DNA of 64,000 bases from Deltaproteobacteria bacterium (GCA_033763315.1 JANRKS010000034.1:288001-352000), one strand, 5' to 3'. Shown: positions 14,810-58,735, counted from the stretch's first letter. Program-made: numbers and translations. Notes: generated by a model from the sequence alone, not told the origin.

Positions 14810-16501
14810 ATGCGGTTTCTTTTGTCAGCGGTGCTATGCGCGACGTTCGCGCTCTCTTTGGCGTGCACAGGGCGAATTGCAGGTGCCGGCGGCGATTGGC
14901 CCGACCATGACGGCAGCGGTGGCCAAGGCGGCGATGATGCCCAACCAGGCGGTGGTTCCGCGAGCGCATCAGACGCGTCCGTTGTGTCGTCTGGCGCGAG
15001 GCTGTCGCGCTTAACGCATTTTCAGTGGCAAAATGCGGTTCGCGATTTGCTGCGTCTGAAAGCCTTGCCGGTGGTGCCCCAGCTGCAGGCGGACGCTGTG
15101 CAAGGCTTCGACAACAACAACGCGGGGCCCGCTTTAGATGTTTCGCTTGAACTTCGCAGCGATTACGAGCAGGCATCCGAATCTATCGCTCGCGCGGTTG
15201 TCGCCGACGCCAACGCTGTGGCCGGTTTGATTCCGAAGTCAGCGCCTAGCGATTTCGAGGGCAAATCACGTGCGGTTATACGTGCCTTGGCCGAACGTGC
15301 CTACCGCAGGCCCCTGCGCGGCGACGAGGACAGTGCCTTGTGGGATTTGTTTAGCCAGGGGCCATCCTTGGTCAACAACGCAGATCGGTTCAAAGCAGGT
15401 TTGGAAGTGTTGGTCGGCGCGTTGTTGCAGTCGCCCATGTTCCTCTATCGCGTGGAACTTGGTGAGGGCGAGAATACCGATGACTTTTCGCTGACACCAT
15501 TTGAGCTTGCCACCCGTTTGGCTTTCGCGCTGACCGACACCATGCCCGATGACGAATTGTTCGAGGCCGCGCGCGCGGGACGTCTTAAAACTGCGGACGA
15601 AGTTGAACGGCAAGCCTCGCGCTTGCTGCAGTCCGGCGCGGCAAAAGCCAGCGGCCGGCATTTTCACGAGCAACTCTTTCGGATGGCCGCGTACGACAGG
15701 ATCAGCAAGGACCCGAAGTCATTCCCTACGTTTTCGCCTGACTTGCCACAGCTGATGAAAGAAGAAAGCCTTCGCTTCCTTGACGACATCCTGGCAGACG
15801 AGCGTCCGGCAGAAGCGATTCTTAATGGAGACACTTCGTTTGTGAACGCGAAACTGGCGGCGCTTTATGATGTTTCGGGATCCTTTGACGATGGCTTCAA
15901 GAAGACGACACTGAACACCAAGCAGCGGCGTGGCTTGCTTACACAAGCCGGTTTTCTGGCGGCGAATGCGGATGCGCACAACCCGGACCCCATTCACCGC
16001 GGTGTTTTCATCAGCCACGTTCTACTGTGCAAAGTCTTGCCCCCGCCGGCCATGAACGCTTCACCCGTTCCTGTGTCCGAGACCAAGACAAACCGCCAGC
16101 GGGTCGAGGCTCACACCGGCAAAGGGACGTGCGGCGCCGGTTGCCACGCAACGCTGATCAACCCGCTGGGGTATGCGTTTGAATCTTTCGATGCGATGGG
16201 CCGCTATCGAACGAAGGACAATGGCGCAGATGTAGACGCCAGCGGAGAGTACGGCGAGCTTTCAGAGGGCCCCATTCGTTTCTCCGATGGCATTGAACTC
16301 AGCGAGCAATTGTCTCATAGCCGCGATTTTCACGAATGCTACTTTGACAATTGGCTGCAATACCTGTGGGCACGTGAGCCGCACGAGGGCGATTCGGTAG
16401 CGCTGGCGGCCTCTGTGAAGGCGTCTTTGGATGGTCAAAGCGTTCGTGATGTTCTGATGGCGATGATTACCAGCCCATCGTTTCGAAGGTTCGTACGATG
16501 A
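14810..16501 (+). CDS. DUF1587/1595/1592/1588/1585 lipoprotein (copy A) with CX3CH heme-like motif
   Basis: Lipobox SLAC, Gly linker, RLTHFQWQNAVRDLL, RAYRRPL, LQSPMFLY, ELATRLAF..TDTMPD, HRG...LLC, CGAGCH..INPLGYAFESFD. Confidence 0.88.
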   Translation: MRFLLSAVLCATFALSLACTGRIAGAGGDWPDHDGSGGQGGDDAQPGGGSASASDASVVSSGARLSRLTHFQWQNAVRDLLRLKALPVVPQLQADAVQGFDNNNAGPALDVSLELRSDYEQASESIARAVVADANAVAGLIPKSAPSDFEGKSRAVIRALAERAYRRPLRGDEDSALWDLFSQGPSLVNNADRFKAGLEVLVGALLQSPMFLYRVELGEGENTDDFSLTPFELATRLAFALTDTMPDDELFEAARAGRLKTADEVERQASRLLQSGAAKASGRHFHEQLFRMAAYDRISKDPKSFPTFSPDLPQLMKEESLRFLDDILADERPAEAILNGDTSFVNAKLAALYDVSGSFDDGFKKTTLNTKQRRGLLTQAGFLAANADAHNPDPIHRGVFISHVLLCKVLPPPAMNASPVPVSETKTNRQRVEAHTGKGTCGAGCHATLINPLGYAFESFDAMGRYRTKDNGADVDASGEYGELSEGPIRFSDGIELSEQLSHSRDFHECYFDNWLQYLWAREPHEGDSVALAASVKASLDGQSVRDVLMAMITSPSFRRFVR

Positions 16502-17919
16502 AGAAATCCACGCGTCGTCAGGTGCTCAAAGGATTGGGTGGTGCCACGCTCGCCTTGCCCGCATTGGATATCTTTGAAGGCCGAGCCAAAGCGGAAGACC
16601 CGCCCACGTACGCGGTGTTCGTGGTCGCCTCGAATGGTGTCGTTCAAGATCTCGGAAGCGAGCCAGAACTTTTTTGGCCGAGCCGTCCGGGCCCCTTGTC
16701 ACGCGCAGCCTTGGAGGCGGAGCAGGGGACCCGCGCCACCGCAATGTTGGCGCGCCACGCTGATAAATTGCTTGTTGTCCGTGGTGTGAACCACGCCTTT
16801 GAATCGCGGAATACGTGCGGTCATACGTGGGGCAATAACCAGTGCCTCACGGCACAGCCAGGCTCTGAAGACCTTGATGGGCCAGCCACCAGTTTGGCAA
16901 TGGGCGAATCAATTGATTATCGGATCGCGCGCGAGAAGACCGTTTCGGGGCGTGGACCGCTTACTTTGCATGCGGGTCTGAACGCTGCCGGGGGCGACGG
17001 TTACGGAAACCCTGGGTATGTTTCTTACAAGGGCCCGAAGCAGCCCATGAGCCCTGACTCAAGCCCATGGGCGGCCTACCTTCGTCTCTCTGGTTTGAGC
17101 AATGCCGACCCTACCTTGGCGAAAATGGTGGTTACCCGCCGAAAGAGCGTTAACGACTTCGTGCGGTCTCAGATCAAAACCTTGGAGTCGCGCAAGGATT
17201 TGAGCGCCGAGGATCGGCGCCGTTTAGACGCGCATTTATCGGCTGTGCGTGACCTAGAGCTAGGAATGGCCACGACGCTCTCGCCGGCGACGGCCAAAGA
17301 AATGGAAGCCCTCGACGGTAAAGACGTGATGATGCGCGTCAAGGTCAACCTAAGCGAGAACCGAGAAGCCGTAATTCGCTTACACATGGAACTCATCGCA
17401 TTTGCGTTTGCGGGCGATTTGTTCAGATCGGCCACACTCAAGATTGGGGACAACAATGACGGGTGGCAAGCCGTCATCGATGGCGTTCAACAACCGAGCT
17501 TCCACATGATCTCGCACGGCGTGCTGGCTGACGGAGGCGATGGCCCCGTGATTGAAAACGCTGTACAGATGCATGCGAAGATTGTGCGCATCTTCATGTC
17601 GCAGTTCGGGATTTTGGCAGACAGACTGGCTGCCGTATCTTCCCCCTCAGGCTCCCTTTTGGATCGAGGCTATTGTGTGTTTGCGAATCAGGTCTCGAAT
17701 GGCAATCACGACTTGCGCAACATGCCCTATGTGATTGTGGGCAAAGCCAACGGTCGGCTCAAGACGGGGCGCTTCGTGGACCTTGGGGGCGTGCCGCATA
17801 ACCTGATGCTCAATGCCCTCCTCGCGGCCGCCGGGGTCACGAAGCCTGGTGGAGCACCGGTGGACGACTTCGGTGCCGTGTCTTTGAAGAAGGGCATCCT
17901 CACCGACTTGCTCACTTAG
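16498..17919 (+). CDS. DUF1552 (HXXSHH-type) Tat-exported protein (copy A)
   Basis: TRRQVLK Tat signal, ESIDYRIA, DRRRLDAHLSAVRDLE, FHMISH, GSLLD, GNHDLRNMP, LKTGRFV. ATGA-coupled to the upstream gene. Confidence 0.88.
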   Translation: MKKSTRRQVLKGLGGATLALPALDIFEGRAKAEDPPTYAVFVVASNGVVQDLGSEPELFWPSRPGPLSRAALEAEQGTRATAMLARHADKLLVVRGVNHAFESRNTCGHTWGNNQCLTAQPGSEDLDGPATSLAMGESIDYRIAREKTVSGRGPLTLHAGLNAAGGDGYGNPGYVSYKGPKQPMSPDSSPWAAYLRLSGLSNADPTLAKMVVTRRKSVNDFVRSQIKTLESRKDLSAEDRRRLDAHLSAVRDLELGMATTLSPATAKEMEALDGKDVMMRVKVNLSENREAVIRLHMELIAFAFAGDLFRSATLKIGDNNDGWQAVIDGVQQPSFHMISHGVLADGGDGPVIENAVQMHAKIVRIFMSQFGILADRLAAVSSPSGSLLDRGYCVFANQVSNGNHDLRNMPYVIVGKANGRLKTGRFVDLGGVPHNLMLNALLAAAGVTKPGGAPVDDFGAVSLKKGILTDLLT

Positions 17920-18235
17920 CTCCGCAAGGAGTGCGCTCGATTGGTAGAGGCACAGCGGTGAGCTGATCATGCATCGAATCGCTCCAATCGCACACGCGCG
18001 CGCCGTTATCTGGCGTACCCGACGAATGAAAAGCCCGTGGCGCGACGAAAGAAACGTGTAAAGGTAGAAGTGCTATCGCAGCCACGCTGGCCACCTCAGC
18101 TACGGATACGGTGCTCGCCAAGTCTTTGGGAATGTAGCGGCAGATGCGATCCAGTGGTTCAACGTCGCTATCGCTCAGTGCAGCTGTGGCAAACGTGGCG
18201 GTGGATAGCCGTCGTGAACCACGACCACGCAACAA
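17916..18235 (-). pseudogene. Degenerate AraC-family HTH remnant
   Basis: LDRICRYI..DLASTVSVAEVASVAA, then after a 1-nt loss (~18076) STSTFTRFFRRATGFSFVGY, a typical AraC first HTH. An in-frame stop follows. Confidence 0.6.
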
Positions 18236-18241
18236 ATGGGC

Positions 18242-19720
18242 TCACACCCGCATCAGTTGAGCAAGCGTTCCGCTCCCCGGATCGTTGTCACCAAATTTCT
18301 CCACGGGCATGCCGAACACCTGCGCGATCGACGTGAGCAGGCGGTGATGAACCACCCACTTTGCAACTTCTGGTTTGCTGCCCGGCATCGCGCCGGGGCT
18401 GGGCAACTTGATTGATTGCCCAGTTTTGAACGCAAAGTTCCCACCGCCGGCCATCCACAAGGGAAACCTGACGTGTTGATGAGGCCCAAGCTCAAGCGAC
18501 TGCAAGGTGGTGGTATCGGAGCCAAACAATACCAGCGTGTTGTCGAGAACGGTGCCGTTGCCTTCCTTGATGGAATCAAGGCGCCCGAGCAGATAGGCCC
18601 ATCGGGCTGCATACCAGCGGTCGAAGTTCTTGTGGGCTTCGATGTCAGCGGGGCGGCCTTTACCGTCCCCGACCGCGTGTGTCGTGCCGTGTTGGTCTCC
18701 GCCTGGCACAGCTTCGTCCATACCCCCATCACAAATGCCAAGCTGCAACGAAGCTGAGCGCGTGAGATCGCATGCGAAGGCCGCGGCGATAAGATCCATC
18801 TGTATGTGTACGCGGTCTTCGATCTTTGTTGGCACCGAGAACGCAGGCTTGGCGCAGCCTTCAGCGGCTGTGCCTGGCGCGGCCTGCGACGTGCCGCCCG
18901 AGGGGGCGGATGGTGTCGTTGGCGTCGCGCCGCCGCCCATCAGCTTGAGACGGTTCTCTAGGCTACTGATGCCATCGAGATGAGCGTCAACTTTCCTTTG
19001 ATCTTCACTGCCCGCCAACTTGCGCACGCGCCCTAGATCGTCCTTCACCAAGTTCAAGACGGACTGCTGCTGTTTGCGCGCGCGCTCCAAAGCACTCGTA
19101 TCAATGGGAGGAGAGGGGGTGCCGGGTGTCGGTGTGCCCGTTCCTCTGTCTGGCAACGTTGGCCCTGTGAATCCCTTGAACAGCATGTCGAACGCCGCTT
19201 GCGGGCTGCCCTGCGCTGTTACGGGCGTCTGCGCTTTGCTGAAGAACACGCCCGTGTGAGGGGCAGGTGCGCCGGCGTTCACGCCCAGGGCCAGCGACCG
19301 AAACTGCGTTTTCGCCTGTCCGTATTGGAAGTCGGCCACCGCCTGTTCAATGGACGGGCCATTCGCGAAGCTCGCCTTCTTTGCGCCCGTGAATACCATT
19401 GTCCCGCCCGACGCGTGCTCGTTGTCGTCGTTGCTAAAGAACCATTGAGGGCCGTAGAGGGCCAACCCGTCCAAGTACAACAGTTTGCTCTTCCACTGGT
19501 TCAAGGCCGTCATCGTTTCGCCCAAAGTGAAGCTGGCGCCCGAGCCCGTGGGCCAGAACGAATTCTCCAAGTATCCAAGCGGACTGAAGACTGTCAGAAT
19601 TCTCTTTGGAACGGTGGCTCCGTAAAGCGATTGCGGCAGAAACGGCGCAAGTCTGGCTGCGCCACCTGCCGCGGTGACGGCTACCAACATTCTGCGACGA
19701 GAAAGCGAAAAGGTGCTCAT
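18242..19720 (-). CDS. DUF1552 Tat-exported protein (copy B)
   Basis: LSRRRML Tat signal, GPSIEQAVA, DQRKVDAHLDGISSLE, AAFACDLTR, QHGTTH, EGNGTVLDNT, FKTGQ. Confidence 0.88.
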   Translation of the reverse strand: MSTFSLSRRRMLVAVTAAGGAARLAPFLPQSLYGATVPKRILTVFSPLGYLENSFWPTGSGASFTLGETMTALNQWKSKLLYLDGLALYGPQWFFSNDDNEHASGGTMVFTGAKKASFANGPSIEQAVADFQYGQAKTQFRSLALGVNAGAPAPHTGVFFSKAQTPVTAQGSPQAAFDMLFKGFTGPTLPDRGTGTPTPGTPSPPIDTSALERARKQQQSVLNLVKDDLGRVRKLAGSEDQRKVDAHLDGISSLENRLKLMGGGATPTTPSAPSGGTSQAAPGTAAEGCAKPAFSVPTKIEDRVHIQMDLIAAAFACDLTRSASLQLGICDGGMDEAVPGGDQHGTTHAVGDGKGRPADIEAHKNFDRWYAARWAYLLGRLDSIKEGNGTVLDNTLVLFGSDTTTLQSLELGPHQHVRFPLWMAGGGNFAFKTGQSIKLPSPGAMPGSKPEVAKWVVHHRLLTSIAQVFGMPVEKFGDNDPGSGTLAQLMRV

Positions 19721-19721
19721 A

Positions 19722-21443
19722 CTACTGCCCCCTGTAAAAGCGGAAAGAATCGCTGGCCACAAGCGAAAGGACGGCTGACTTGATGTCGCCCTTGCCGCTC
19801 AGAAACGTCTTCGTAAGGTCGTTTATAGAACACGCATCCTCACTTTGAGGGTCGCGTCCCAACGCAAACTTGATCCACTGCTGCGACATGCAGGTACGCA
19901 CTTCCGGGCTCTTCGCCAAGATGCCCGACATCTCCTTTGCGTTCGAGAACTTGCCGTCGCCTTCGATGTTCACGATTTCGCCGGATCCATCGATGTCGTG
20001 ACCGCCGCCATCCTTGGTGCGGAACGCGCCCATGGGGTCGTAGTTCTCAAACCCGAATCCGATGGAGTCCATCAATTGATGGCAGCCTTTGCACGACGGG
20101 TTTTCTTGGTGAATGCGTAAGAGCTCTTGCGCCGTTTTTGTTTCGGCGTCTGGCGGAAGCGTGAAATCAACTTTCACTGTGGGCGGAGGAACAACCTCAC
20201 AAAGCACGTCGCGACGGACCAAATGGCCCCTGTTGACGGCTCCGCGAGGTGAAAGCTGTGCGGGGTGCGACGCTAGCACCCCCGCCAACGTCAACAAACC
20301 TTGTCTCGAACCATCAGACACTTCAGCGCGACCATCATCGCTGGCCTTGATTCTGTCGCCATACACACGCGCCAGTGGCCCTTGCGGAAACACGTAAGCC
20401 CCGGTGAACATTTCTTCCACAGAGCCACTGCCCTTGGTCATCACGTAGCCGACGAACTTGCGCGGCTCCTCGGCCATCGCCTGACGCATCTCCTCAGTGA
20501 AATCGGGAAATCTGCCTGATTTGCTCACTTCAGCCGTAGTCACAGCGTCGATGCCCAGCAGCTCTACGTGAAACTCCTTTGCGACGTCGATGAACCTATC
20601 CGTGGCGATGAGCTTCTTTGCATAACTTTGTACGCCTTCGACGGTATCCAATTTGCCGTCCGCGGCTGCGGAGAACAAATCTGCGTCCGGCATCGTGCCT
20701 GTTAGGGTGTAGGCCAAGCGCGAGGCCATTTCGTAGCCATTTAGCTTGCGCATGCCGTTGTCGTCGGGGGCGCCCGCTTCCACCAGATAAAGAAAGTTCG
20801 GCGACGACAGCATGGCTTGCACCACGAGGCGGATGCCCGAAGCAAAACTCTCTTCCTTGCCCGTCATGTACAGACCGGCGAACGCGGATTTCTCGTCGCT
20901 TTGCAAGGGCCGGCGATAGGCGCGAGCGCCAAACGTTTCAATAAACCGTGTGGCGCAACGGTCTTCGCCCATCGTTTTCGTGTCACACGATAACAGCGAC
21001 GACAGATCTCCTGACGCCTTCTCGGATAGCGTTTTGGCCAAGGTGTCGTAGGCGCCCACGTCACCTTCTTCTACGGGAAACAATGCGTTTGTTTTGAACG
21101 GCCCCGTGCGCGAATCACCAAGGAGAATAGACGTGTCGGGGGCTTGCCCAAGCAGTTCCTTCACCGTGGCGGCGTATTGGCGAGCGGTTAGCCGACGCCA
21201 TCGACCGCTGCCCACCCCGCGCGATTCACACGCGCTTGGCCCCGGACCGCTGCCGCCATTGTCTACGTCGCCGCCGCCGGCGCCGCCGCGATCGTTCCCG
21301 TCACCCTTTGAGGACACCGATCCCGTGCAGCCTGCAGCCAGCGCGGAGATAGATCCTGTGGCGAGGCTGAATGCGAGAAGTTGGCGTGAGAGCCACCGAT
21401 GCGGATTCGCCGCCTGGCCGTAGCTATAGAACTTCCTGCCCAT
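19722..21443 (-). CDS. DUF1587/1595/1592/1588/1585 lipoprotein (copy B) with CxxCH
   Basis: Lipobox LAAGC, RRLTARQY, RAYRRPL, LSSPNFLY, EMASRLAY, NRG..VRRDVLC, CKGCH. Confidence 0.88.
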   Translation of the reverse strand: MGRKFYSYGQAANPHRWLSRQLLAFSLATGSISALAAGCTGSVSSKGDGNDRGGAGGGDVDNGGSGPGPSACESRGVGSGRWRRLTARQYAATVKELLGQAPDTSILLGDSRTGPFKTNALFPVEEGDVGAYDTLAKTLSEKASGDLSSLLSCDTKTMGEDRCATRFIETFGARAYRRPLQSDEKSAFAGLYMTGKEESFASGIRLVVQAMLSSPNFLYLVEAGAPDDNGMRKLNGYEMASRLAYTLTGTMPDADLFSAAADGKLDTVEGVQSYAKKLIATDRFIDVAKEFHVELLGIDAVTTAEVSKSGRFPDFTEEMRQAMAEEPRKFVGYVMTKGSGSVEEMFTGAYVFPQGPLARVYGDRIKASDDGRAEVSDGSRQGLLTLAGVLASHPAQLSPRGAVNRGHLVRRDVLCEVVPPPTVKVDFTLPPDAETKTAQELLRIHQENPSCKGCHQLMDSIGFGFENYDPMGAFRTKDGGGHDIDGSGEIVNIEGDGKFSNAKEMSGILAKSPEVRTCMSQQWIKFALGRDPQSEDACSINDLTKTFLSGKGDIKSAVLSLVASDSFRFYRGQ

Positions 21444-21559
21444 CTCATCTCCTTGGTGCGTCGATCCAACTGGATCACCAAAGAGGATGAGTTGTTTCGA
21501 TGTAGAAGGACATGGGCCGTTGGTCCCGATGCTCCCTTCCTTCAGGGGGCAATGCGCTG

Positions 21560-22198
21560 TCAGCCCGCCACGAGCCGCTCAAGCGCCTGCCGCACGAGCT
21601 TCTTGGCGCGCGCCAAGGTCATGGCACCGCCGCGCACAGCCACCTGAAAGCACACGCCGTCTATCAACGCAACCAGGCTTCGCGTTGCTTCTGTGATGTT
21701 TAGGTCATTGTGCAAAGATCCATCTTGAACGCCAGCCTTGATCAGCCGCGCGACGATCGCGTTCCAAGCGCGGTAACGGCGTGCATGCGTGCGCGCCAGG
21801 TTCGGTTCATAAACCGCGCGCGACCAAAAGGCGATCCACAGGCGCCACTGTCGCATCGTCTCCGCGTCATCAGGCAGGACGGCGTCAACAAGGGCCGTTA
21901 GGCGTTGCAGCGCCGAGCCCTCGCGGCTTTGGCGAGCCAACGTTTCCGTAAAGCGGACGGATTCTCGCTCCAACGCTTCTGCCAGCAATTGATCCACGGA
22001 GGCAAAGTGGTGCGTCACTGTGCCGAGCGAAACCTGCGAAGCCTCCGCGATCCGGCGCATCGTGGCCGACAGCAGACCCTCATCAGCGATTACGCGCGCG
22101 GCGGCCTCTAAGACCATCGATCGGCGCACATCTGCGGAATGCCGGGCCACAGGCTGGCTATCTTCGGAGGTCGTACGTGAACGCTTACGCTTTGGCAT
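21560..22198 (-). CDS. TetR-family transcriptional regulator (BetI-like C-terminus)
   Basis: AAARVIADEGLLSATMRRIAEASQVSLGTVTHHF HTH. LVALIDG in the C-terminal domain. Confidence 0.92.
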   Translation of the reverse strand: MPKRKRSRTTSEDSQPVARHSADVRRSMVLEAAARVIADEGLLSATMRRIAEASQVSLGTVTHHFASVDQLLAEALERESVRFTETLARQSREGSALQRLTALVDAVLPDDAETMRQWRLWIAFWSRAVYEPNLARTHARRYRAWNAIVARLIKAGVQDGSLHNDLNITEATRSLVALIDGVCFQVAVRGGAMTLARAKKLVRQALERLVAG

Positions 22199-22201: not shown

Positions 22202-23467
22202 CTAGCGCGGGATGAGTCGAAAAGGCCTTGTCATGAAGGCATAGTAGCTGTCTTTGGGGGCAGGCGGTTTCGTAAATTGTGAGTAGTCGCCTGAGAACAG
22301 CAGCGTGCCTTGCATGCCGTCGGCGCTTAACCACTTCGACGGAATCTGCGGCAGATAGGCCACATGCTCACCTTCCCACTTCGGTTCATGATGCACCAAA
22401 GCCCAGGGGCCCCACGGGGTGGGGCCTTCAACGATCGTTAGTTGGCGCGCTCGATGCCAGGTCTTTGCTGCAACCTCGGGCATGGTTGCCAATGAATGTG
22501 GAACCACATCGCTGAAGTAGGCAAGCAGGAAGCGACCAAGCCCCGCGTTCCAGGTCATGCTCGGATGCCCAACCTTTCCCGGATCGCTCAAGATCGGACG
22601 CGCGCGAAACTCTTCGTTTGTCCATGCTGGCTCTCCGGCAACGCCAGCGTAAAACTGCCATGCGGCACGATCCAGAATGCGTTCTCGCGGCACGCGGGCC
22701 ATGAAGATGTTGTTTCCGGTTTCCCAGTTTTCATCATTCGACAACGCGTAGACATAAGGTTCCAAGTTCTTCGGAACGTCTGTGTATCCAGGCCCAAATC
22801 CAACAAAGGCCAGCCCGCCAAAGTTGGGGCCGAGAAAATATGGTGTGGACGCATCAGGAATGTTCTGCCAGGTGTTACCGGCATCATCGGAATACATGAT
22901 GCCCGCCACGCCCGCGTGCGACGACACCGCGTCCAACAACATGGTCGCGGCATCCGGCCGAATCGGGTTGTTGCTCTGCTTTTCGGTCAGTCGCCAACGC
23001 TCGTTTCCAGGAAACGAATAGTCGTAGTCATACGCCGCCACATACAACCGTTTGTCCACGGCGAGCGCACCCGAGACGTACCGAACCTTGGCCGTGTTTT
23101 GTCGCCTCAAGCCAGGGAAGCGCGAAATTTCTTCTACCTTGTGTTGGGGCGGAACACCGGAGACGCGCAATAGATGTGCGAAGTGCCAAGGGTTATCGAA
23201 GTTGTGGCCATCGTCGTCAACGACATAGAGCTCCCCGTCGGCGCCCCATGTCCACCAGTGCATGTCCGTTGCCGTGCCGGGGTATTTAAATGCCGGCCCC
23301 GTAAACTCGAAGCCGCGGATTAGCTTGCTTTTCGGCAAGGGCGGGGCGCTCACGGGCCGCGCCGGGGATGCGGCGGCGTCTCGCGTGGGCGCATGCGCGC
23401 AAAGCGACGTCAAAAGGCCAGCGGATCCATAGGTGAACGCTCTGCGATTCATATTGCGATGGGCCAT
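22202..23467 (-). CDS. Tat-exported DUF4185-like beta-propeller glycoside hydrolase
   Basis: MNRRAF Tat signal, TWGADG.LY..DDG, SDDAGNTW (Asp-box), MARVP...AWQFYAG, GPTPWGPW, PSKWLSADG. Confidence 0.7.
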   Translation of the reverse strand: MAHRNMNRRAFTYGSAGLLTSLCAHAPTRDAAASPARPVSAPPLPKSKLIRGFEFTGPAFKYPGTATDMHWWTWGADGELYVVDDDGHNFDNPWHFAHLLRVSGVPPQHKVEEISRFPGLRRQNTAKVRYVSGALAVDKRLYVAAYDYDYSFPGNERWRLTEKQSNNPIRPDAATMLLDAVSSHAGVAGIMYSDDAGNTWQNIPDASTPYFLGPNFGGLAFVGFGPGYTDVPKNLEPYVYALSNDENWETGNNIFMARVPRERILDRAAWQFYAGVAGEPAWTNEEFRARPILSDPGKVGHPSMTWNAGLGRFLLAYFSDVVPHSLATMPEVAAKTWHRARQLTIVEGPTPWGPWALVHHEPKWEGEHVAYLPQIPSKWLSADGMQGTLLFSGDYSQFTKPPAPKDSYYAFMTRPFRLIPR

Positions 23468-34540: not shown

Positions 34541-34779
34541 GCGAGGCAGATGTCGTCACCGGCACCTCGGATGACGCGGACTGAACCACAAAGGCCCTTT
34601 CTGGGGGAAAAGGGGCAGGGTCGCCTGGGAACTGCGAGATCTCTGGTGGGAGGCTGCGGATCTCCGTTGGGTCGAAAGGCGCGGCGCCAACACCCCCCAA
34701 GGCTCCCTCTTCCGCGGGTTTGCGAATAGCCATGGCCCGTCTTGCATTGGCCCTTCACGTGCAAGCCCTTGAAGATGCT

Positions 34780-51458: not shown

Positions 51459-53195
51459 ATGAAAGCCCGACAGCCTGTGGTTCTGGGTTTGTTGTTCTGT
51501 GTGCTGCCCGTCGGGTGCATGGGGCGCGTGAGCGACCATGGTGAAGCGCTTAATGAGGGCGAGTCTGATCCGGCCGCGGGCGCCTCCGGAGGCGCCGCTG
51601 GAACATCGCCTTCGGCCGCGGGCGGTCGCTCGCAAACGCCCCCCGTGCCAGAGGTTCCGGGCCAACCATTCGACGATGGGATCGCGGGCAACTTACGCCG
51701 GCTGACCATCCGCGAGTACCGGAATACCATTGTTGATCTGCTGGGTACACCGGAGTACCTGCTTTACCCCACCGAAGGCTTCGCCCCCGACGGGCGAGCA
51801 TGGGTTTTCGAGAACAACCGCAACCTACCCACGAGCGCCGCCATCGCCTTTGACTATCTGGCGGCGGCAGAGGTGTTTGCCGAAGACAGCGTGACTCATC
51901 GTTTCGAAAGCCTGTCTACGTGCGATTTTGCAAAGACGGAAGACGCGTGTGCGAAGGACTTCGTGGTGCGCGTGGGCCAGCGCGCCTTGCGGCGTCCTTT
52001 AACCGACCTCGACACGACCGAATTCATGGCTTTGTACAAGGCAGCGCGTGCCGCGCCTGAGGCGTCATACAGGGAGGCCACGCGCGTCGTGCTGACGGCT
52101 TTCCTGCAAAGTCCCGAGTTTCTCTATCACTTCGAGGTGGGCGATGAACCTCGCGCGACCACGGCCAGCAAGACGCCATTGACCGATTACGAAGTGGCGT
52201 CGCGACTGTCGTATGCGTTTTGGTCCTCGATGCCAGACAGCGAACTGTTTGCGGCCGCGGCGCGTGGCGAGCTGCGAACGGTGGAGGGCATCACGAAGCA
52301 AGTGAATCGCATACTCGCGATGCCACACACGCGCGAAACCCTGATGAATTACTTCGCGCAGTGGCTCGATTTCGATCACACCATGGAGCTTTACAACAAC
52401 CCTGCTTATGGTGAGGTCAGACCGTTTATCATTCCTGAGATCAAGGCCTTCATACAATCCGTTGTTTTTGACGGTGACGGTCAATTGGCAACGCTGCTCA
52501 AGGCTCCCTATTCGTTCCTGAACGAGCCACTGGCGGCGATCTATGGCGTGGACGGCCTCGAAGGTGACACCTTGAAGCGCACGGCGCTTGATCCCAACCA
52601 ACGTGCCGGCCTGCTGACGATGCCTGTCTTTCTCGGCAACACTTCCAACCCCGACGGTTCGATTCGCCCGGTGATTCGGGGCAAATACGTGCGCCAGCGG
52701 TTGCTGTGCCAAGAGATGCCGCCACCACCACCCGAGGCAAACACCAAAGCCCCTGAGGTCAAAGAAGGGTCGACAACGCGGCAAAGGGTGGAGCAACACG
52801 CGGCAGATCCCTTCTGCGCTGGCTGCCACCGCCTGATGGATCCCATCGGTTTGATTTTTGACCGTTATGACAGCTTGGGCCGGTATCGGCCGGCTGGTTC
52901 TGATGGCACGGACGATCAAGGCGAGCTTGTGGCCACGGATGTAAATGGCAAGGTCAATGGTGTGCGTCAGTTGGCTGAACGCCTCAGCATGAGCAAGGAT
53001 GTGCAGGCGTGCGTGGCTTCATCCTGGTTTCGCTTTGCGCTCGGACGCTCGGGGGAGGATCCATCGGATGAGATGCCGCTGCGCGCTTTCATAGATGCCT
53101 TCGCACGTAGTGGTGACATGCGCGGTCTGTTTCGTGGTCTCTCCACCTCCGATGCATTTCGCTTCATACAAGCACCAAAGGGGCAGTGCCGATGA
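51459..53195 (+). CDS. DUF1587/1595/1592/1588/1585 lipoprotein (copy C) with CxxCH
   Basis: Lipobox PVGC, RRLTIREYRNTI.DLL, RALRRPL, LQSPEFLY, EVASRLSY..WSSMPD, RGKYVRQRLLC, CAGCH. Confidence 0.88.
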   Translation: MKARQPVVLGLLFCVLPVGCMGRVSDHGEALNEGESDPAAGASGGAAGTSPSAAGGRSQTPPVPEVPGQPFDDGIAGNLRRLTIREYRNTIVDLLGTPEYLLYPTEGFAPDGRAWVFENNRNLPTSAAIAFDYLAAAEVFAEDSVTHRFESLSTCDFAKTEDACAKDFVVRVGQRALRRPLTDLDTTEFMALYKAARAAPEASYREATRVVLTAFLQSPEFLYHFEVGDEPRATTASKTPLTDYEVASRLSYAFWSSMPDSELFAAAARGELRTVEGITKQVNRILAMPHTRETLMNYFAQWLDFDHTMELYNNPAYGEVRPFIIPEIKAFIQSVVFDGDGQLATLLKAPYSFLNEPLAAIYGVDGLEGDTLKRTALDPNQRAGLLTMPVFLGNTSNPDGSIRPVIRGKYVRQRLLCQEMPPPPPEANTKAPEVKEGSTTRQRVEQHAADPFCAGCHRLMDPIGLIFDRYDSLGRYRPAGSDGTDDQGELVATDVNGKVNGVRQLAERLSMSKDVQACVASSWFRFALGRSGEDPSDEMPLRAFIDAFARSGDMRGLFRGLSTSDAFRFIQAPKGQCR

Positions 53196-54442
53196 GTCAG
53201 CCAATCGTTCGCCGCGATCTTCTACGCATGGCTGGGTTGTCGACCATGGCCTTGCCGCTCGGCGCTTTATGCCAAAGCGCGAGGGCCGCCGCCGCGTTTC
53301 CAAAACGGCTTGTCATTGTGACCAGTGCCAACGGAACGTCGATGCAGCACTTTTGGCCAACGACGGGCGTCACGGGTAGCCGCATTCTTGAGCCTCTGGC
53401 GCCACACGCCAGCAAGCTTGTGGTGATGCGCGGCATCGACGCCGAGTCGGCGCACAAAGCGCCTGTGCCTCCAGACCATGATCCCGATTACCGCAACCTG
53501 CTTACGGGCTGGCAAGCCGTTCCTCAGGGAACCGATTATGTGATCGCTGGCATCTCCATTGATCAGCACATTGCCAACGCCGTGGGGCGCCAGACCAAGC
53601 TTGCGTCATGGCATCTCGGTGGCGGATCGCGGTTGCATAGCCGCGGCTTCAACCAGCCCATCGTTTCGGACGAGAACCCCAAAGCGGCGGTCGACCGTTT
53701 GTTTGGGGATCTGGCCATCGGTGCGTCTGAGCTCACCAAACAGCGTCGCGAGCGCGCTGCCGTGATGGACGTGGTCGCGAATCGGATGAAGCGGTTGCGA
53801 TGCCAATTGGGTGCCGCCGACCAACAAAAGCTTGATGCACATTTCGAAGCCGTGAACGATGTGCGGCTTCGCACGCAATTGGTCTTGCCCGCGGCCTGTA
53901 AAGCGCCCGCCGTGGCCAAGGATATGGATTACCCAACAACCATTCGCACCTTCATGGATTTGACTGTGGCGGCTTTGGCGTGTGACGCCACGCGTGTCGT
54001 GACCGTTGATCTCGACAATAGCCACACGCAGCATGGCTTCATCGACTACCCGGGCTTGGATGTGCCGTACCACGCAGGCATTGCCCACGATGGTAGCGTC
54101 GACGGCTTTAAGAAGGTGGCCGAGATCGAACGCTGGGTGGCCGCCCAGTTTGCGTATTTGTTGTCTCGCATGGATGGCGTCAAAGAGGGCGATAAGACCC
54201 TTCTCGACAATAGCGTTGTTGTGTGGCTAAAGGAGCAGTCCAATGGCAGCACCCATGCGCGACGAGACTATCCTGTGGTGCTGGCGGGAGGCGGCGCCGG
54301 CGCCATACGAACAGGTCGAACCCTGCATGCCCAGGGCAAACCACACAGTGGCTTGTTGATCTCCTTGGCCAACGCGATGGATGTGCCAACCAAAACGTTT
54401 GGCGATCCACAGTTTTCGAACGGGCCCCTGCCCGGGTTGTAA
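53192..54442 (+). CDS. DUF1552 Tat-exported protein (copy C)
   Basis: VRRDLLR Tat signal, SIDQHIA, DQQKLDAH, ALACDATRV, YHAGIAH, EGDKTLLDNS, THARRDYP, IRTGR. ATGA-coupled. Confidence 0.88.
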   Translation: MSQPIVRRDLLRMAGLSTMALPLGALCQSARAAAAFPKRLVIVTSANGTSMQHFWPTTGVTGSRILEPLAPHASKLVVMRGIDAESAHKAPVPPDHDPDYRNLLTGWQAVPQGTDYVIAGISIDQHIANAVGRQTKLASWHLGGGSRLHSRGFNQPIVSDENPKAAVDRLFGDLAIGASELTKQRRERAAVMDVVANRMKRLRCQLGAADQQKLDAHFEAVNDVRLRTQLVLPAACKAPAVAKDMDYPTTIRTFMDLTVAALACDATRVVTVDLDNSHTQHGFIDYPGLDVPYHAGIAHDGSVDGFKKVAEIERWVAAQFAYLLSRMDGVKEGDKTLLDNSVVVWLKEQSNGSTHARRDYPVVLAGGGAGAIRTGRTLHAQGKPHSGLLISLANAMDVPTKTFGDPQFSNGPLPGL

Positions 54443-54581
54443 CGCCGTTTTTGCCTGCAGAGCTAGTCATTTCCCGCAGCAAAAGGACGCCGTCGCCTCG
54501 GATGACTTAGCTCAACACTCGTTACATTCTATACGTGCTCATCGCGATCCATTTTCGCCTGTGGCGGCAGCAAGGATGTTC

Positions 54582-55676
54582 ATGCGCTTCCGAAAGAATG
54601 CACTTCGTGTATTGTTAACAGTGGTTATCTGGGGCGGGCTGGTTGGGCTTTGGGCGTGCGCTTCGTCAACGGAGTCCTGTAGTGGCGACTGTGAAGAAGG
54701 TGGTCAGACGGGAGAAGGTGGGCAAGGCGGCGAGGGTGGCTTTGGTTCCGGTGGCTCGAGTGAGCAAGGCGGAAAAGGGGGGAACGCCACGGGCGGCAGC
54801 GCGGCCTCAAGCGCTGGCAAAGGCGGCACACCAGCCGGTGGCAACGGCACATCCTCCGGCGGCAGCGGCACATCCTCCGGCGGCAACGCCGGCAGCGTTC
54901 CCGATGCGGGCGTCGGCGGAAGCTCACCCGATGGTGGCGCGATCAACAACGATCCGAAGTCGAAGAATTGGGTGTTCTTGCTGTTGGGGCAGTCGAATAT
55001 GGCGGGGTCATCTCCCATGGAGAAGGAGGATCAGTCGGCGCCCGCGCGGGTTTGGAAATTGAGCCGGGACAAAGTCTGGGTGCCTGGGGCCGAAGGCTCG
55101 AACATCAACCCCTACGTTAAATTCACACCGACCAACTATTTTTCTCCCCTGGGGGAAGACAGCTTGAGCCCCAGCCGAACGTTCGCCATGGATGTTCTGG
55201 CCAGCACTTCAGACGCGGCCGTCAACATCTACATTGTGAACGCCGCCGTCAGCGGTTCGGCCATCGAAAGCTGGGAACCTGGCAAAGGTGAGAATTACCA
55301 GTTCATGTTGCCCTACCTCGAGGAGGCAATGAAGAAGGGTGTTGTGCGAGGGTTCCTCTGGCACCAGGGTGAGGCAAATGGCGGGATGGCTTCGCGCACC
55401 TACGCCGATCGACTCAAAGCCATCTTGGCCGCCATTCGCGCCAAGGTTGCGGATCCTTTGCTGCCCATGGTGGCAGGCCAGGTGGGCATCACGGCCGATG
55501 GTAACGTCAACGGCGCATTGAATCTCATAAAGCAGGAGGATGCCCGGTTCGGCATCGCCTCGTGCGTGGGCCTGACAAAGAAGGTGCCCGGCGACGCTCA
55601 TTACAGCTCGAGTTCAGAACGCGAATTTGGCAAGCGCTACGCCGCCGCGTGGCTCGCAATCCAATCGAAACCCTAA
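54582..55676 (+). CDS. SGNH-type carbohydrate esterase lipoprotein (CE6 / sialate O-acetylesterase-like)
   Basis: Lipobox LWAC, Gly/Ser linker, LLLGQSNMAG, AVSGSAIESW, FLWHQGE, DAHY. Confidence 0.85.
   Translation: MRFRKNALRVLLTVVIWGGLVGLWACASSTESCSGDCEEGGQTGEGGQGGEGGFGSGGSSEQGGKGGNATGGSAASSAGKGGTPAGGNGTSSGGSGTSSGGNAGSVPDAGVGGSSPDGGAINNDPKSKNWVFLLLGQSNMAGSSPMEKEDQSAPARVWKLSRDKVWVPGAEGSNINPYVKFTPTNYFSPLGEDSLSPSRTFAMDVLASTSDAAVNIYIVNAAVSGSAIESWEPGKGENYQFMLPYLEEAMKKGVVRGFLWHQGEANGGMASRTYADRLKAILAAIRAKVADPLLPMVAGQVGITADGNVNGALNLIKQEDARFGIASCVGLTKKVPGDAHYSSSSEREFGKRYAAAWLAIQSKP
54837..54888 (+). repeat. 21-bp tandem repeat in the Gly/Ser linker (GGNGTSS GGSGTSS GGN)
   Basis: GGTGGCAACGGCACATCCTCC followed by GGCGGCAGCGGCACATCCTCC plus a partial third unit. 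Confidence 0.7.
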
Positions 55677-55691
55677 TTAGAGGAAGATCGA

Positions 55692-57362
55692 ATGCAGTTT
55701 CAACCTCGGTACATACTATGGGTGTCGGCACTGGCTGCCGCGTGTTCTGGCTCGGTGTCCGGTCCGGGTTCGGGAAATGGTGGTCAAGACGATGGCGAGG
55801 GCGGTGAGGGCGGGGGCAGCCTGCCGCCTGAAGTTGCCGAGGCGTGCTCAGATCAACCGAACGTTGGTCCGAGCAAGTGGCGACGTCTTTCCACCACACA
55901 ATACAAGAACGCGGTCACCGACCTGCTTGGCGTTGCACCGGATACAAAAGGGTTCTTGTTCGATTCCACCACGGGGCCATTCGCCACCAATACGACGCTG
56001 AATCCACAAGATGTGGACATCGCACAGTACGCTTCGGCGGCAGAGGCATTGGCTGCCAAAGCCACGGCCGATGTCAACAAGCTCATCGATTGCGATCCCC
56101 GCACGCAAACCGAGGATGCATGCGCAAACCGCTTCATCGACAACTTTGCCACGCGTGCCTTTCGTAGGCCGATCGAATCGACCGAGCAAAGCAGGCTTCG
56201 CGAGCTCTACAAGCTTGGAAAAGCGCAGAGCTTCACCGACGGCATTCGTTTGGTTTTGCAGGCCATCCTGCAATCGCCGAGCTTCTTGTACCTGGTTGAG
56301 CGCGGCCAAGGCGATGGCAAAGGCATCGTACCGCTGACCGACTATGAGGTTGCGGCACGCCTTTCGTTTACGCTCACGGCCACTTTACCTGACAGTCAAT
56401 TGCTTGCGGCTGCCAAGGACAAAAAGCTTTCAACCGCGCAAGGCCTTCGATCAGAGGCCATGCGCCTGATGAATTCGCCCCGCTTTAACGAAGCCTCTAT
56501 CACGTTTGCCACAGAGCTACTGGGCTTGCCCTCACTCACGCGCAGCGGATTTGTCACCAAATCGGGCGGCGATGCGGCCACGTTCGACGATTCGATGCGA
56601 CAGGCGATGCTGGACGAGCCGAGAAAGTTCGTGGATTACGTGATGAACAAGGGCAGCGGTACGGTGGAAGAGCTGTTCTCGGCGCCATACGTTTTTCCCG
56701 CCGGCCCCTTAACCAAAATCTACGGCCCTTCGCTTTCGCCTGATGGTGACGGACGCGCGGTGATCTCCGACGGCTCACGTCTGGGCCTGTTGAGCCTGGC
56801 TGGTGTGCAAGCAAGTCATCCGCACGTGCCCACAATTTATGGTGCGGTGGTTCGCGGCAATCTTGTCCGTCGCGAACTGTTGTGCATGACAATCCCACCG
56901 CCCAATGTGGCTGTGAAATTTGAGGCACCCCCCAATGCGAGTCAAATGTCGCCACAACAGCTGCTGCGAGCGCATCAGGACAACGACACATGCCGTCCCT
57001 GTCACGAGCTGATGGACCCCATCGGCTTTGGCCTTGAACGCTACGATGGCGTAGGAAGGCTAAAAGAAAAGAATGGCGATGGTTCGCAAGTGGATTCGTC
57101 CGGCGAGATTTTAGGTCTCGAGAACGAATACAAATTCTCTGACACACAAGAGCTTTTGAAGACGTTGGCGACCATGCCAGAAGTCAGACGCTGCATGGCA
57201 ACTCAACTTGTACGCTTCTCACTTGCACGCGAACCAGACGACGCGGATGCGTGTGCTGCACGGAAGCTGCAAAGCGTTCTTGCCGACGGCAAGGGCAATC
57301 TTCGAGACGCCATTTTGACCCTCGTCACGAGCGATGCATTTCGATATCGAAAAGGGGAATGA
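55692..57362 (+). CDS. DUF1587/1595/1592/1588/1585 lipoprotein (copy D) with CxxCH
   Basis: Lipobox AAAC, WRRLSTTQYKN, RAFRRP, LQSPSFLY, EVAARLSF, VRG..VRRELLC, CRPCH. Confidence 0.88.
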   Translation: MQFQPRYILWVSALAAACSGSVSGPGSGNGGQDDGEGGEGGGSLPPEVAEACSDQPNVGPSKWRRLSTTQYKNAVTDLLGVAPDTKGFLFDSTTGPFATNTTLNPQDVDIAQYASAAEALAAKATADVNKLIDCDPRTQTEDACANRFIDNFATRAFRRPIESTEQSRLRELYKLGKAQSFTDGIRLVLQAILQSPSFLYLVERGQGDGKGIVPLTDYEVAARLSFTLTATLPDSQLLAAAKDKKLSTAQGLRSEAMRLMNSPRFNEASITFATELLGLPSLTRSGFVTKSGGDAATFDDSMRQAMLDEPRKFVDYVMNKGSGTVEELFSAPYVFPAGPLTKIYGPSLSPDGDGRAVISDGSRLGLLSLAGVQASHPHVPTIYGAVVRGNLVRRELLCMTIPPPNVAVKFEAPPNASQMSPQQLLRAHQDNDTCRPCHELMDPIGFGLERYDGVGRLKEKNGDGSQVDSSGEILGLENEYKFSDTQELLKTLATMPEVRRCMATQLVRFSLAREPDDADACAARKLQSVLADGKGNLRDAILTLVTSDAFRYRKGE

Positions 57363-58735
57363 AGATGTACCTCAACGGAATTTCTCGTCGAAAGTTTGTC
57401 GCTGCCCTCGGTGCTGCTGGTGCGGCCAGCCGATTGGCACCGTTTTTACCTCACGCTGTCCGCGCTGAGGGCGCGCCAAAGCGGCTCTTGGTTGTGTTTT
57501 CACCCATGGGCTACTTGGAGAACTCGTTTTGGCCCACAGTGAACGGTTCCGACTTCACGCTTGGCGAAACGATGTCGGTGCTCCAGCCTTACAAGAGCAA
57601 ATTGCTTTACCCCGATGGCCTCATGGTCTATGGCGCGCAGTGGTTCTTCAAGAACGACGACAACGAACACGCTTCGGGCCAATCGATGGTTTTTACTGGG
57701 TCGAAGAAAGATGGGTTTTCCACGGGCCCGTCTGTTGACCATGCGGTTGCGGACTTCGTCTACGCACAGACGAAAACCAAGTTTCGTCACCTGGCCTTGG
57801 GCGTGAACGCCCCGTCTCCTGTGCCACATAACGCGTGCTTCTTCTCAAAAGCGCAAACGCCGGTCAATGCGCAAAACAGTCCCGCGTCGGCGTTCGATAT
57901 GGTTTTCAAAGACTGGACTCCCCCGAGCGCAGGCACGCCCATTGACACAACCGCCATCGATCGTGCGCGCAAACAAAGCCAAAGCGTCATTGACTTTGTC
58001 AAAGGCGATCTCGATCGCCTAAAGGGCGTCGCGGGCAAGGACGATCAAGAAAAGGTTGCCGCCCACTTGGATGGCATTCGCATGCTTGAGGCCCGCCTAT
58101 CCCAATCTGGCGGCGGCAGCCCTGGGGCGGCCTGCACCAAGCCGAATGCACCTTCGGGGGCCGGCTTGTCAGGGCAGGTTGAAGCACAAATGGATGTCAT
58201 TACAGCTGCATTTGCGTGTGACCTCACCCGCGTCGCCTCGCTTCAACTAGGCTTTTGCGACGGTGGCCTGGAGGAGATCCCTGGGCTCAATCATCACGAC
58301 GTGACACACGCGGTTGGCGACACCAAAGGCGCACAAACTGTGCTCGACAACCATAAGAAGATCGATCGGTGGTACGCCGATCGGTGGTTGCATTTGCTCA
58401 CGAAGATGGATTCGATCAAAGAGGGCAACGGCACGTTGCTCGACAACACCCTTATTCTCTTTGGCTCGGACACCACCACGGGGCAATCCTTGGAACTGTC
58501 CCCGCACTTGCACTGGCGGTTTCCGTTGTGGCTTGCCGGTGGATCCAATTTCGCGTTCAAAACGGGTCGCACCATCAAGTTGCCCCAGCCGAGGGGCATG
58601 GGCAGTCCAGCACAGTCTGCTCAATGGGTGGTTCACAATCGTTTGTTGACCTCGATTTGCAGGGCCTTCGGGATGGATGTTGATACGTTTGGCACCAACG
58701 ATCCCGGTAAGGGGCCGCTGACGCAGCTAGGGTAA
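57359..58735 (+). CDS. DUF1552 Tat-exported protein (copy D)
   Basis: ISRRKFV Tat signal, AAFACDLTR, HHDVTH, EGNGTLLDNT, FKTGR. ATGA-coupled. Close paralog of copy B. Confidence 0.88.
   Translation: MKMYLNGISRRKFVAALGAAGAASRLAPFLPHAVRAEGAPKRLLVVFSPMGYLENSFWPTVNGSDFTLGETMSVLQPYKSKLLYPDGLMVYGAQWFFKNDDNEHASGQSMVFTGSKKDGFSTGPSVDHAVADFVYAQTKTKFRHLALGVNAPSPVPHNACFFSKAQTPVNAQNSPASAFDMVFKDWTPPSAGTPIDTTAIDRARKQSQSVIDFVKGDLDRLKGVAGKDDQEKVAAHLDGIRMLEARLSQSGGGSPGAACTKPNAPSGAGLSGQVEAQMDVITAAFACDLTRVASLQLGFCDGGLEEIPGLNHHDVTHAVGDTKGAQTVLDNHKKIDRWYADRWLHLLTKMDSIKEGNGTLLDNTLILFGSDTTTGQSLELSPHLHWRFPLWLAGGSNFAFKTGRTIKLPQPRGMGSPAQSAQWVVHNRLLTSICRAFGMDVDTFGTNDPGKGPLTQLG

Follow-up and report, generated by a model that had tools for sequence, protein, structure and literature searches.

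Four gene pairs in a stretch of 64,000 nucleotides from a Deltaproteobacteria bacterium (GCA_033763315.1, JANRKS010000034.1:288001-352000; the whole stretch is referred to here as the window) are additional examples of a module, published but uncharacterised, that is extremely common in this genome. In each pair, the gene for a lipoprotein with a putative c-type haem site (protein A) stands directly ahead of the gene for a DUF1552 protein with a twin-arginine (Tat) signal (protein B). Here, we show that A and B form a co-inherited, translationally coupled unit whose two halves diverge together, that B, as judged by a structural model, has the fold of the alkaline-phosphatase/sulfatase superfamily, and that many pairs adjoin sensor or regulator genes of their own (two-component systems and extracytoplasmic function, ECF, sigma factors) as well as lectin- or lyase-like genes. 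Tentatively, and as a possibility rather than a probability, we propose that the pairs are small periplasmic redox enzymes, each composed of a substrate-specific metalloenzyme (B) and a tethered haem partner (A).

The window lies on contig C34 (C34:288001-352000) of a 7.63-Mb assembly in 40 contigs that is 91% complete; coordinates outside the window are given below with the name of their contig. The host is a myxobacterium, as judged by its named nearest homologues. The A proteins carry, in this order, the Pfam domains PSD3, PSD5, PSD4, PSCyt3 and PSD2 (PF07626, PF07637, PF07631, PF07627 and PF07624; DUF1587, DUF1595, DUF1592, DUF1588 and DUF1585), which make up PSCyt3/PSD group III, and the B proteins belong to DUF1552, also named HXXSHH (PF07586).

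The PSCyt3/PSD domains were reportedly defined in Rhodopirellula baltica by Studholme et al. in 2004, and modules that combine PSCyt/PSD proteins with DUF1552 (and DUF1501) have gone unexplained for some twenty years. A preliminary description of this stretch, made from its sequence, held that neither protein family has an assigned function; full-text searches of the literature agree, having found no functional study of the DUF1552, PSCyt3/PSD or DUF1501/DUF1800 families. The pairing of PSCyt3/PSD (group III) genes with DUF1552 genes is already stated in Text S1 of He et al. (2017, mSphere, PMC5615132), and the same work, in the parts that treat these families, describes the function as not known and takes fused carbohydrate-binding modules to suggest a role in carbohydrate metabolism. 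For a sister module, PSCyt1/2-PSD1 with DUF1501, electron transfer has been proposed in the corresponding section of Kamneva et al. (2012, PMC3542564), while DUF1800-DUF1501 operons are described by Goncalves et al. (2016, PMC5122149) as adjoining bacterial chitin synthase genes, and Table 1 of Alessi et al. (2018, PMC6004670) includes a DUF1592 protein bearing a CBM2 carbohydrate-binding module among wheat-straw metasecretome proteins.

To this background the present analysis adds the fold of B with a map of its conserved residues, the missing distal haem ligand of A, the co-divergence of the partners, the linkage to regulators and a modest enrichment of carbohydrate-active enzymes near the pairs. 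These additions sharpen the question and name residues and regulators; they do not settle the function. The chemistry of the module would fill a gap in our picture of periplasmic processing by myxobacteria, planctomycetes, verrucomicrobia and acidobacteria.

Results

A and B form a coupled and co-diverging unit

The coordinates, families and motifs of the four pairs, numbered 1-4 along the window, were established by listing and translating open reading frames (ORFs), by a Pfam scan and by motif inspection. Pair 1 comprises A1 (14810-16501, + strand) and B1 (16498-17919, +). Pair 2 lies on the other strand, with A2 at 19722-21443 (-) and B2 at 18242-19720 (-), and is followed on the + strand by pair 3 (A3, 51459-53195; B3, 53192-54442) and pair 4 (A4, 55692-57362; B4, 57359-58735). 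The arrangement is exactly that given in the preliminary description: four pairs with the lipoprotein gene always first, joined by ATGA overlaps in pairs 1, 3 and 4 and separated by a 1-bp gap after A2. All five domains score above the Pfam gathering score in all four A proteins, the lowest being PSD3 of A2 (26.3 bits; cut-off 23), and DUF1552/HXXSHH is matched by all four B proteins at 152-191 bits (B1, 152; B2, 180; B3, 190; B4, 191; cut-off 30) with nearly all 307 profile positions covered. Within the window, kinship is seen only between pairs 2 and 4 (48% identity for A and 62% for B), and the closest relative of each window pair sits elsewhere in the genome.

Profiles made from our own alignments and run over all ORFs of at least 90 amino acids (aa), with a threshold of at least 60 bits, detected 121 A genes and 131 B genes in the genome; the Pfam profile gave 130 DUF1552 matches. 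A-then-B neighbours on one strand were counted 111 times, so that A stands directly upstream of 111 of the 131 B genes, and 4 further pairs occur in B-then-A order (C29:114565-117717, C6:150853-153932, C24:18167-21159 and C22:132357-135859). Pairing is clearly beyond chance genome-wide. The A and B ORFs total 398,718 bp, or 5.2% of the genome, with a mean of 0.97 pairs per 64-kb bin, and because 7 of 101 bins hold four or more, the presence of four pairs in the window is unremarkable for this genome.

The earlier suggestion of an obligate unit is borne out by more than adjacency. Of the 111 junctions, 47 are 4-bp overlaps and most others are gaps of less than 40 bp. Pairwise A-A identities correlate with the matching B-B identities (r = 0.67 over 110 pairs; maximum 0.14 in 500 label permutations), and for 46 of the 110 pairs one and the same other pair supplies the nearest paralogue of both A and B. 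With median identities of 29% for A and 25% for B, the paralogues are old. Solitary DUF1552-like genes also occur: about ten, divergent in sequence and 500-570 aa long, score 123-152 bits with our own profile and have neither an A gene beside them nor a common neighbour family; C16:155808-157370, C26:111184-112686 and C5:45875-47452 are examples.

Copy number varies widely among relatives of the host. Eight other genomes of the host's family contain between 1 and at least 76 DUF1552 matches each at E ≤ 1e-20, and four genomes of other families of its class contain 0 or 1. Among 1.84 billion representative sequences, the B profile recovered 15,066 clusters (50% identity) at E ≤ 1e-10, the best 150 of which are all 392-473 aa long; a separate search found no longer (fused) forms of B, which is weak evidence.

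Protein A is a predicted haem lipoprotein on a flexible tether

Judged by its sequence, A is a lipoprotein whose flexible tether spans about 50 residues and which has one putative c-type haem site. The single C-terminal haem-c motif ascribed to each window lipoprotein in the preliminary description is present in every translation: the predicted haem site lies at the C-terminal end of PSCyt3 and takes the form CX3CH in A1 (CGAGCH, with its haem Cys and His aligned) and CXXCH in A2 (CKGCH), A3 (CAGCH) and A4 (CRPCH). All four have a lipobox, which reads LSLAC in A1. Genome-wide, a haem motif was found in 121 of 121 A proteins (one CXXCH in 112, CX3CH only in 3, two CXXCH in 5 and both kinds in 1). 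Residues C434, C437 and H438 are kept in 119/119 aligned A paralogues, and the same Cys-Cys-His triad in 64/64 public homologues. The lipobox Cys is present in 117/119, the residue after it being Thr in 54 and Ser in 39 and never Lys or Asp, and the low-complexity linker before the first conserved R-[RK]-L motif has a median length of 51 residues in the 66 paralogues in which that motif was matched. Conserved Cys pairs are found at 134/144 and at 398 with 501. The genome holds three genes of the Cytochrom_C_asm family for cytochrome-c maturation.

An AlphaFold2 model of A4, built from 64 sequences (556 residues; predicted local distance difference test score, pLDDT, 91), is almost wholly helical. 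A Foldseek search of the whole model against the PDB gave no match at E ≤ 0.001, and a wide VIA search with the whole model reached at most Z 5.7, to a small helical bundle over residues 107-201; because the 556 residues were searched as one, these searches say little on single domains. A sequence search of solved structures with A4 returned nothing relevant, and a search of the ESM Atlas returned its own family only. The PSD2 region of A4 has a sub-threshold match to DUF1800 (25.3 bits against a cut-off of 26.1), and one homologue of A (P0166) carries a CBM2 domain.

Protein B is predicted to have an alkaline-phosphatase/sulfatase fold

The fold of B was approached through B3, which was modelled with AlphaFold2 from a 67-sequence alignment (mean pLDDT 90.5). 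Against the PDB, Foldseek gave 52 matches at E ≤ 0.001, with a probability of 0.97-1.00 among the matches listed, and these include sulfatases, the lipoteichoic acid synthase LtaP, YejM/PbgA and the TAB5 alkaline phosphatase. In VIA, residues 33-416 of the model aligned to sulfatases, NPP phosphodiesterases and MCR-1 at Z 15.8-17.1 over 240-272 aligned residues, the top match having a root-mean-square deviation of 3.8 Å over 253 residues (Z 17.1). Sequence searches of solved structures with B3 and with the B profile returned nothing relevant and no similarity to this fold.

Conservation was counted over 127 aligned B paralogues of this genome, with B3 numbering. His355 is invariant (127/127), and His occupies position 299 in 125, position 294 in 124 and position 96 in 117 of them. 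The acidic positions are 124 (Asp 121, Glu 4), 339 (Asp 112, Glu 7) and 348 (Glu 71, Asp 19), and the remaining well-kept positions are Gly48 (118), Cys264 (111), 217 (His 94, Tyr 19) and 122 (Ser 98, Thr 27). By analogy with the known layout of the superfamily, the conserved residues would form one site. H96, S122, D/E124, H217, H294, H299, D339 and H355 are kept in all four window B proteins. The His clusters that the preliminary description had picked out in these proteins (HMISH, HGTTH, HAGIAH and HHDVTH) align to the near-invariant H294 and H299 of the family, and the RR signals it reported are likewise present in all four (in B2 and B4 together with the start). Across the genome, 120 of 131 B proteins have an RR motif; B is predicted to be exported folded via Tat, for which the genome has one tatC gene, and the RR motif of B together with the lipobox of A is consistent with the placing of both partners in the envelope, as had been proposed.

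H96 is followed by L-T-G at +8 to +10 (H-x7-L-T-G). In the two soluble sulfatases of this genome (C-A-P-S-R-A-V-L-M-T-G and C-T-P-S-R-Q-S-M-L-T-G) the formylglycine cysteine has the same spacing, and the sole local alignment that hhalign made between the B profile and these two sulfatases puts H96 on that cysteine (E 0.34, not significant). Because of this spacing and this alignment, B resembles a scaffold of sulfatase type that has His in place of the covalent nucleophile. The C/S-x-P-x-R motif of S1 sulfatases, CAPSR and CTPSR in the two genomic examples, is absent from B, where 117 of 127 proteins have His instead. Likewise, the Asp-Asp that follows the first strand in S1 sulfatases (ADD and GDD in this genome) is replaced in B by Pro-Asn/His-Gly (N in 49 and H in 29, with G48 in 118 of 127). 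The genome has 9 genes with a Sulfatase domain (PF00884), 2 of which resemble soluble sulfatases (about 500 aa, CxPxR) by length and N-terminus, and 11 DUF1501 genes; an hhalign comparison of B with four of the DUF1501 proteins gave a probability of 47% and E 2e-4 over 75 columns in the C-terminal motif block. For mutation, the residues of choice are H96, S/T122, D124, H294, H299, D339 and H355 of B and the CXXCH of A.

Many pairs adjoin regulators and glycan-related genes

Neighbourhoods were read from a crude set of 5,741 genes called by codon-usage scoring, which recovers the window genes except the lactonase gene. The flank sample consisted of the gene on each side of 60 pairs, drawn at random from the 107 outside the window, and came to 105 proteins after 15 A/B genes were excluded. 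Control flanks were taken from 60 random adjacent gene pairs, one of them lying among pairs on contig C16, and came to 113 proteins after exclusion of 5 A/B genes and with the last locus dropped. Fisher tests were one-sided, and the list of carbohydrate categories was drawn up after the results had been seen.

Regulators show the stronger links. Response regulators with a GerE domain make up 8/105 of the pair flanks and 0/113 of the control flanks (p 0.0025), and an A or B gene is found within 5 kb of 19 of the 38 GerE-type regulator genes in the genome, as against 15.6% of other genes (p 8e-7). BLAST clustering of the 366 genes that lie no more than two positions from a pair, with a background of 6.7%, singled out three neighbour families. 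Of the propeller sensor kinases with Reg_prop, Y_Y_Y and HisKA_3 domains, 10/29 are at most two genes away from a pair (p 1e-5); within three genes, such a kinase accompanies 17% of pairs and 2.4% of random gene pairs. ECF sigma factor genes are also over-represented (9/48; p 0.004), as is a Cip1-like (polysaccharide-lyase-like) family of about 330 aa (9/16; p 2e-7), six of whose members stand directly upstream of A (the family includes C2:45152-46144 and C40:221640-222632). The same clustering found no family at most pairs, that is, no universal third component. Where pairs have NarL-type regulators and propeller sensor kinases of their own, these are handles that could be used in this genome to find inducers.

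An enrichment of carbohydrate-active enzymes near the pairs, proposed in the preliminary description, is present in this genome, and the link is real but modest. Carbohydrate-type domains were found in 14/105 pair flanks (GH9, Cip1-like twice, pectate-lyase-like, SASA, Laminin_G_3 three times, G8/CEMIP, PA14, 3-keto-disaccharide hydrolase, GSDH twice and DUF1565) and in 6/113 control flanks (GH28, a weak GH5, amylase, GH3, rhamnosidase and Cip1-like), an approximately 2.7-fold difference (p 0.034). When PF00756 esterases, which occur in 3/105 pair flanks and 0/113 control flanks, are added, the counts become 17/105 and 6/113 (p 0.008). Genes with no Pfam family at E ≤ 1e-5 are more frequent beside pairs (39/105 vs 22/113, p 0.003), and the other flank genes include two di-haem peroxidases and two AhpC/redoxin proteins. 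At the same threshold, none of the 105 pair-flank proteins matched an ankyrin family. In one side observation, at C34:20548-28059, an A-B pair is directly followed by a PSCyt1-PSCyt2-PSD1 gene and has a Laminin_G_3 gene upstream.

Discussion

A possible function as periplasmic redox enzymes

In the reading that we tentatively prefer, B would be the catalytic subunit, with a metal site on a sulfatase scaffold and a His in place of the formylglycine nucleophile. A would dock on B, and its haem would exchange electrons with the metal site of B or with the respiratory chain. Each of the approximately 111 paralogous pairs may be tuned to a different low-molecular-weight substrate, and many of these substrates might derive from polysaccharide breakdown.

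Several observations weigh against this proposal. The analysis found neither a redox cofactor nor a domain of redox type in B, which in Pfam has only DUF1552 matches, and to our knowledge every characterised member of the alkaline-phosphatase/sulfatase superfamily is a hydrolase, a transferase or a mutase. Two-subunit periplasmic dehydrogenases with a cytochrome-c subunit exist in the SorAB and FccAB types; the redox cofactor domain looked for in the Tat subunit on that model was not found in B, the fold of which is unlike those of known flavin and molybdenum enzymes. The placing of H96 at the formylglycine position depends on motif spacing and on an alignment short of significance (E 0.34). 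In A, no distal haem ligand is conserved beyond the proximal His: the best further His, H428, is present in 73/119, and no Met column reaches 50%. Because no further His or Met is conserved, the sixth ligand would be variable, absent or supplied from elsewhere, and the lack of a conserved distal ligand is uncommon among cytochromes that serve only in electron transfer. As for carbohydrates, the enrichment is modest and was counted with categories chosen post hoc; 39/105 flank genes belong to no Pfam family, and the others include many kinases, regulators and housekeeping genes. Lastly, PSCyt gene density is reported to be inverse to glycoside hydrolase density in Verrucomicrobia genomes (r = -0.62) in the part of He et al. 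(2017, PMC5615132) that compares the two.

The same fold lends itself to a hydrolytic interpretation, the strongest of the alternatives and still, in our view, an unlikely one: B would hydrolyse or transfer phospho-ester, sulfo-ester or similar groups on substrates derived from glycans, with Ser/Thr122 as its nucleophile, as in alkaline phosphatase, NPP and the phosphoethanolamine transferases, and A would be an anchor or specificity subunit with a structural or regulatory haem. The superfamily to which the fold of B points is hydrolytic. Enzymes of the alkaline-phosphatase superfamily usually place their nucleophile at the N-terminus of a helix, and position 122, Ser or Thr in 125 of the 127 paralogues (98 and 27), stands at the N-terminus of helix 123-131 in the B3 model. 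With only 9 PF00884 genes, 2 of them like soluble sulfatases, the genome leaves room for another esterase family, and esterases do stand beside pairs (PF00756 in the flank sample and SASA in the window). Against these points, a purely structural role would hardly account for a haem motif in 121/121 A proteins, and the Asp-Asp metal ligands of sulfatases are replaced in B by Pro-Asn/His-Gly.

Both readings so far draw on a link to glycans, and a further alternative, which we rate as distinctly unlikely, dispenses with it: the module would be a general, duplicated envelope system, serving phosphorus, sulfur or metal scavenging or redox or peroxide chemistry, and its carbohydrate-active neighbours would reflect a genome rich in such enzymes. 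The size of the enrichment (about 2.7-fold, p 0.03) suits this idea, as do neighbours such as the di-haem peroxidases (2/105), AhpC/redoxin proteins (2/105), kinases and the many genes of no known family. So do the copy number of 1 to at least 76 among eight genomes of the same family, as expected of an accessory, niche-dependent system, and the inverse relation with glycoside hydrolase density noted for Verrucomicrobia in He et al. (2017, PMC5615132). What it accounts for less well is that 9 of the 16 Cip1-like genes lie within two genes of a pair, that Laminin_G_3 occurs in 3/105 flank genes, that propeller-type sensor kinases are linked to pairs, and that homologues fused to carbohydrate-binding modules exist (P0166, and those mentioned in the relevant parts of He et al. 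2017, PMC5615132, and Kamneva et al. 2012, PMC3542564).

A variant of the proposed redox function, far-fetched on present evidence, would have the haem and a His-ligated non-haem metal form a joint active site at the A-B interface, a hydrolase fold having been turned into a new periplasmic oxidoreductase with one enzyme per substrate and each enzyme under its own sensor. Such a site is conceivable because the haem of A has no conserved sixth ligand and because B combines four near-invariant His and acidic residues with the loss of the nucleophile.

Very improbable, finally, is a non-catalytic glycan-capture device analogous to SusD or SusCD, with A as surface glycan binder and B as inactive scaffold: it would suit a helical, long-tethered lipoprotein of about 550 aa, the expansion of paralogues with dedicated regulators that recalls polysaccharide utilisation loci, and a genome with just 10 TonB-dependent receptor genes, but the catalytic-type residues of B are strongly constrained (112-127 of 127 paralogues), B is modelled as a soluble alpha/beta protein rather than a channel, the haem motif of A is invariant, and nothing in the pair is able to carry substrate across a membrane.

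Relation to known modules

The preliminary description had offered a SusCD-like marker module as one interpretation, and as a transporter this was rejected: the modelled alpha/beta fold of B with its catalytic-type residues is neither a barrel nor a porin, neither protein resembles SusC, neither A nor B matches TonB-dependent receptor families in Pfam, and searches of solved structures, made with the A4 model as a whole, gave no clear match for A, SusD included. The polysaccharide utilisation loci of Bacteroidota combine SusC/SusD pairs with hybrid two-component or ECF regulators. The myxobacterial pairs are comparable in that a marker pair is duplicated about 100-fold and often stands beside a propeller-type kinase, a NarL-type regulator or an ECF sigma factor and glycan-active genes. 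In contrast to SusC/SusD, no TonB-dependent barrel or SusD fold was found in them, and one partner is enzyme-like while the other has a haem site; the likeness is one of genome organisation only.

The closest counterpart is the PSCyt3/PSD and DUF1552 module of the Planctomycetes-Verrucomicrobia-Chlamydiae (PVC) group as treated in He et al. (2017), with the same domains in the same order, an adjacent DUF1552 gene, no assigned function and a proposed link to carbohydrates. It differs from the present case in its host, here a myxobacterium in which approximately 111 pairs occupy 5.2% of the genome, and A is here a lipoprotein with one haem motif and no fused carbohydrate-binding module. The linkage to regulators and the fold of B go beyond the portions of that text that concern the pairing.

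The PSCyt1/PSCyt2/PSD1 and DUF1501 module of Planctomycetes and Verrucomicrobia, as described in sections of PMC3542564, likewise couples a haem-motif protein to a following Tat-signal protein, is duplicated and sometimes has fused carbohydrate-binding domains. DUF1501 shares a weak C-terminal motif block with B, and one PSCyt1-PSCyt2-PSD1 module abuts an A-B pair in this genome; the Pfam families of both partners are different, however, and homology between B and DUF1501 is weakly supported by sequence. The DUF1800 and DUF1501 pairs of Proteobacteria, in the operons presented in PMC5122149, resemble the A-B pairs as units of a helical protein and a Tat-signal protein beside sugar-related genes, whereas DUF1800 was not found in the present 91%-complete genome. 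With S1 formylglycine sulfatases and NPP/alkaline-phosphatase enzymes, B would share its overall fold and, with the two sulfatases of this genome, the spacing of a helix motif that ends in L-T-G; it differs from S1 sulfatases in having His in place of CxPxR, in lacking Asp-Asp behind the first strand, in a sequence with no detectable similarity to solved structures of this fold and in its obligatory haem-protein partner.

Other features of the window

Most of the carbohydrate-related neighbours named for the four pairs in the preliminary description were recovered. A gene for an SMP-30/gluconolactonase at 13846-14778 (+; Pfam SGL, E 9e-52), predicted to be cytoplasmic as it has no signal peptide, ends 31 bp before A1. 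Upstream of A2 and on the same strand lie a TetR regulator gene (21560-22198, -) and a DUF4185 gene (22202-23467, -), both assigned by Pfam. Between pairs 3 and 4, an ORF for a SASA (CE6-type) esterase at 54381-55676 (+; Pfam SASA, E 3.7e-36), with a likely start near 54576, ends 15 bp before A4. The gene that had been called GH30-like, divergent from A3 at 49803-51263 (-), encodes a secreted protein of 486 aa with a signal peptide and only weak matches to GH59 and Glyco_hydro_cc (E ~0.006). Downstream of B4, at 58938-59849 (+), is a gene for a putative lipoprotein of about 300 aa with a lipobox-like N-terminus and no Pfam match.

A scan of 42 window ORFs found no TonB-dependent or ABC sugar transporter, in line with the preliminary description, and scans for promoters and terminators around both pair regions gave sites no more numerous than in shuffled sequence. 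Two sensor kinases of about 970-990 aa, members of the kinase family enriched beside A-B pairs, are encoded in the window: one of Reg_prop/Y_Y_Y/HisKA_3 type at 28434-31337 (+) and one of Reg_prop/HisKA_3 type (990 aa) that begins at 62841 and runs off the window (62841-64000, +).

Further genes were noted in passing. Divergent from the lactonase-A1-B1 unit, genes at 9584-13981 (-) for a short-chain dehydrogenase/reductase, an RraA-like aldolase, an IlvD/Edd-type dehydratase and an EamA transporter look like a sugar-acid route. A 475-aa protein encoded at 34720-36147 (+) has weak matches (E 0.003-0.014) to a cytochrome-c domain of cbb3 type and to the two halves of copper type II (PHM/DBH-like) monooxygenases and may be a haem-copper monooxygenase-like fusion. 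A lipoprotein encoded at 48389-49735 (+) has an N-terminal run of 'NGLxxI'-type heptad repeats and matches no Pfam family; 11 genes of this genome make up its family, and 3 of them are near A-B pairs. A gene pair for a DabA/DabB-type inorganic-carbon transporter occupies the middle of the window (41313-45328, -). At 4932-8489 (-) lies a row of GH49-like, ECF sigma factor and FecR-like anti-sigma genes; here a glycan-active gene adjoins dedicated regulators of a second type.

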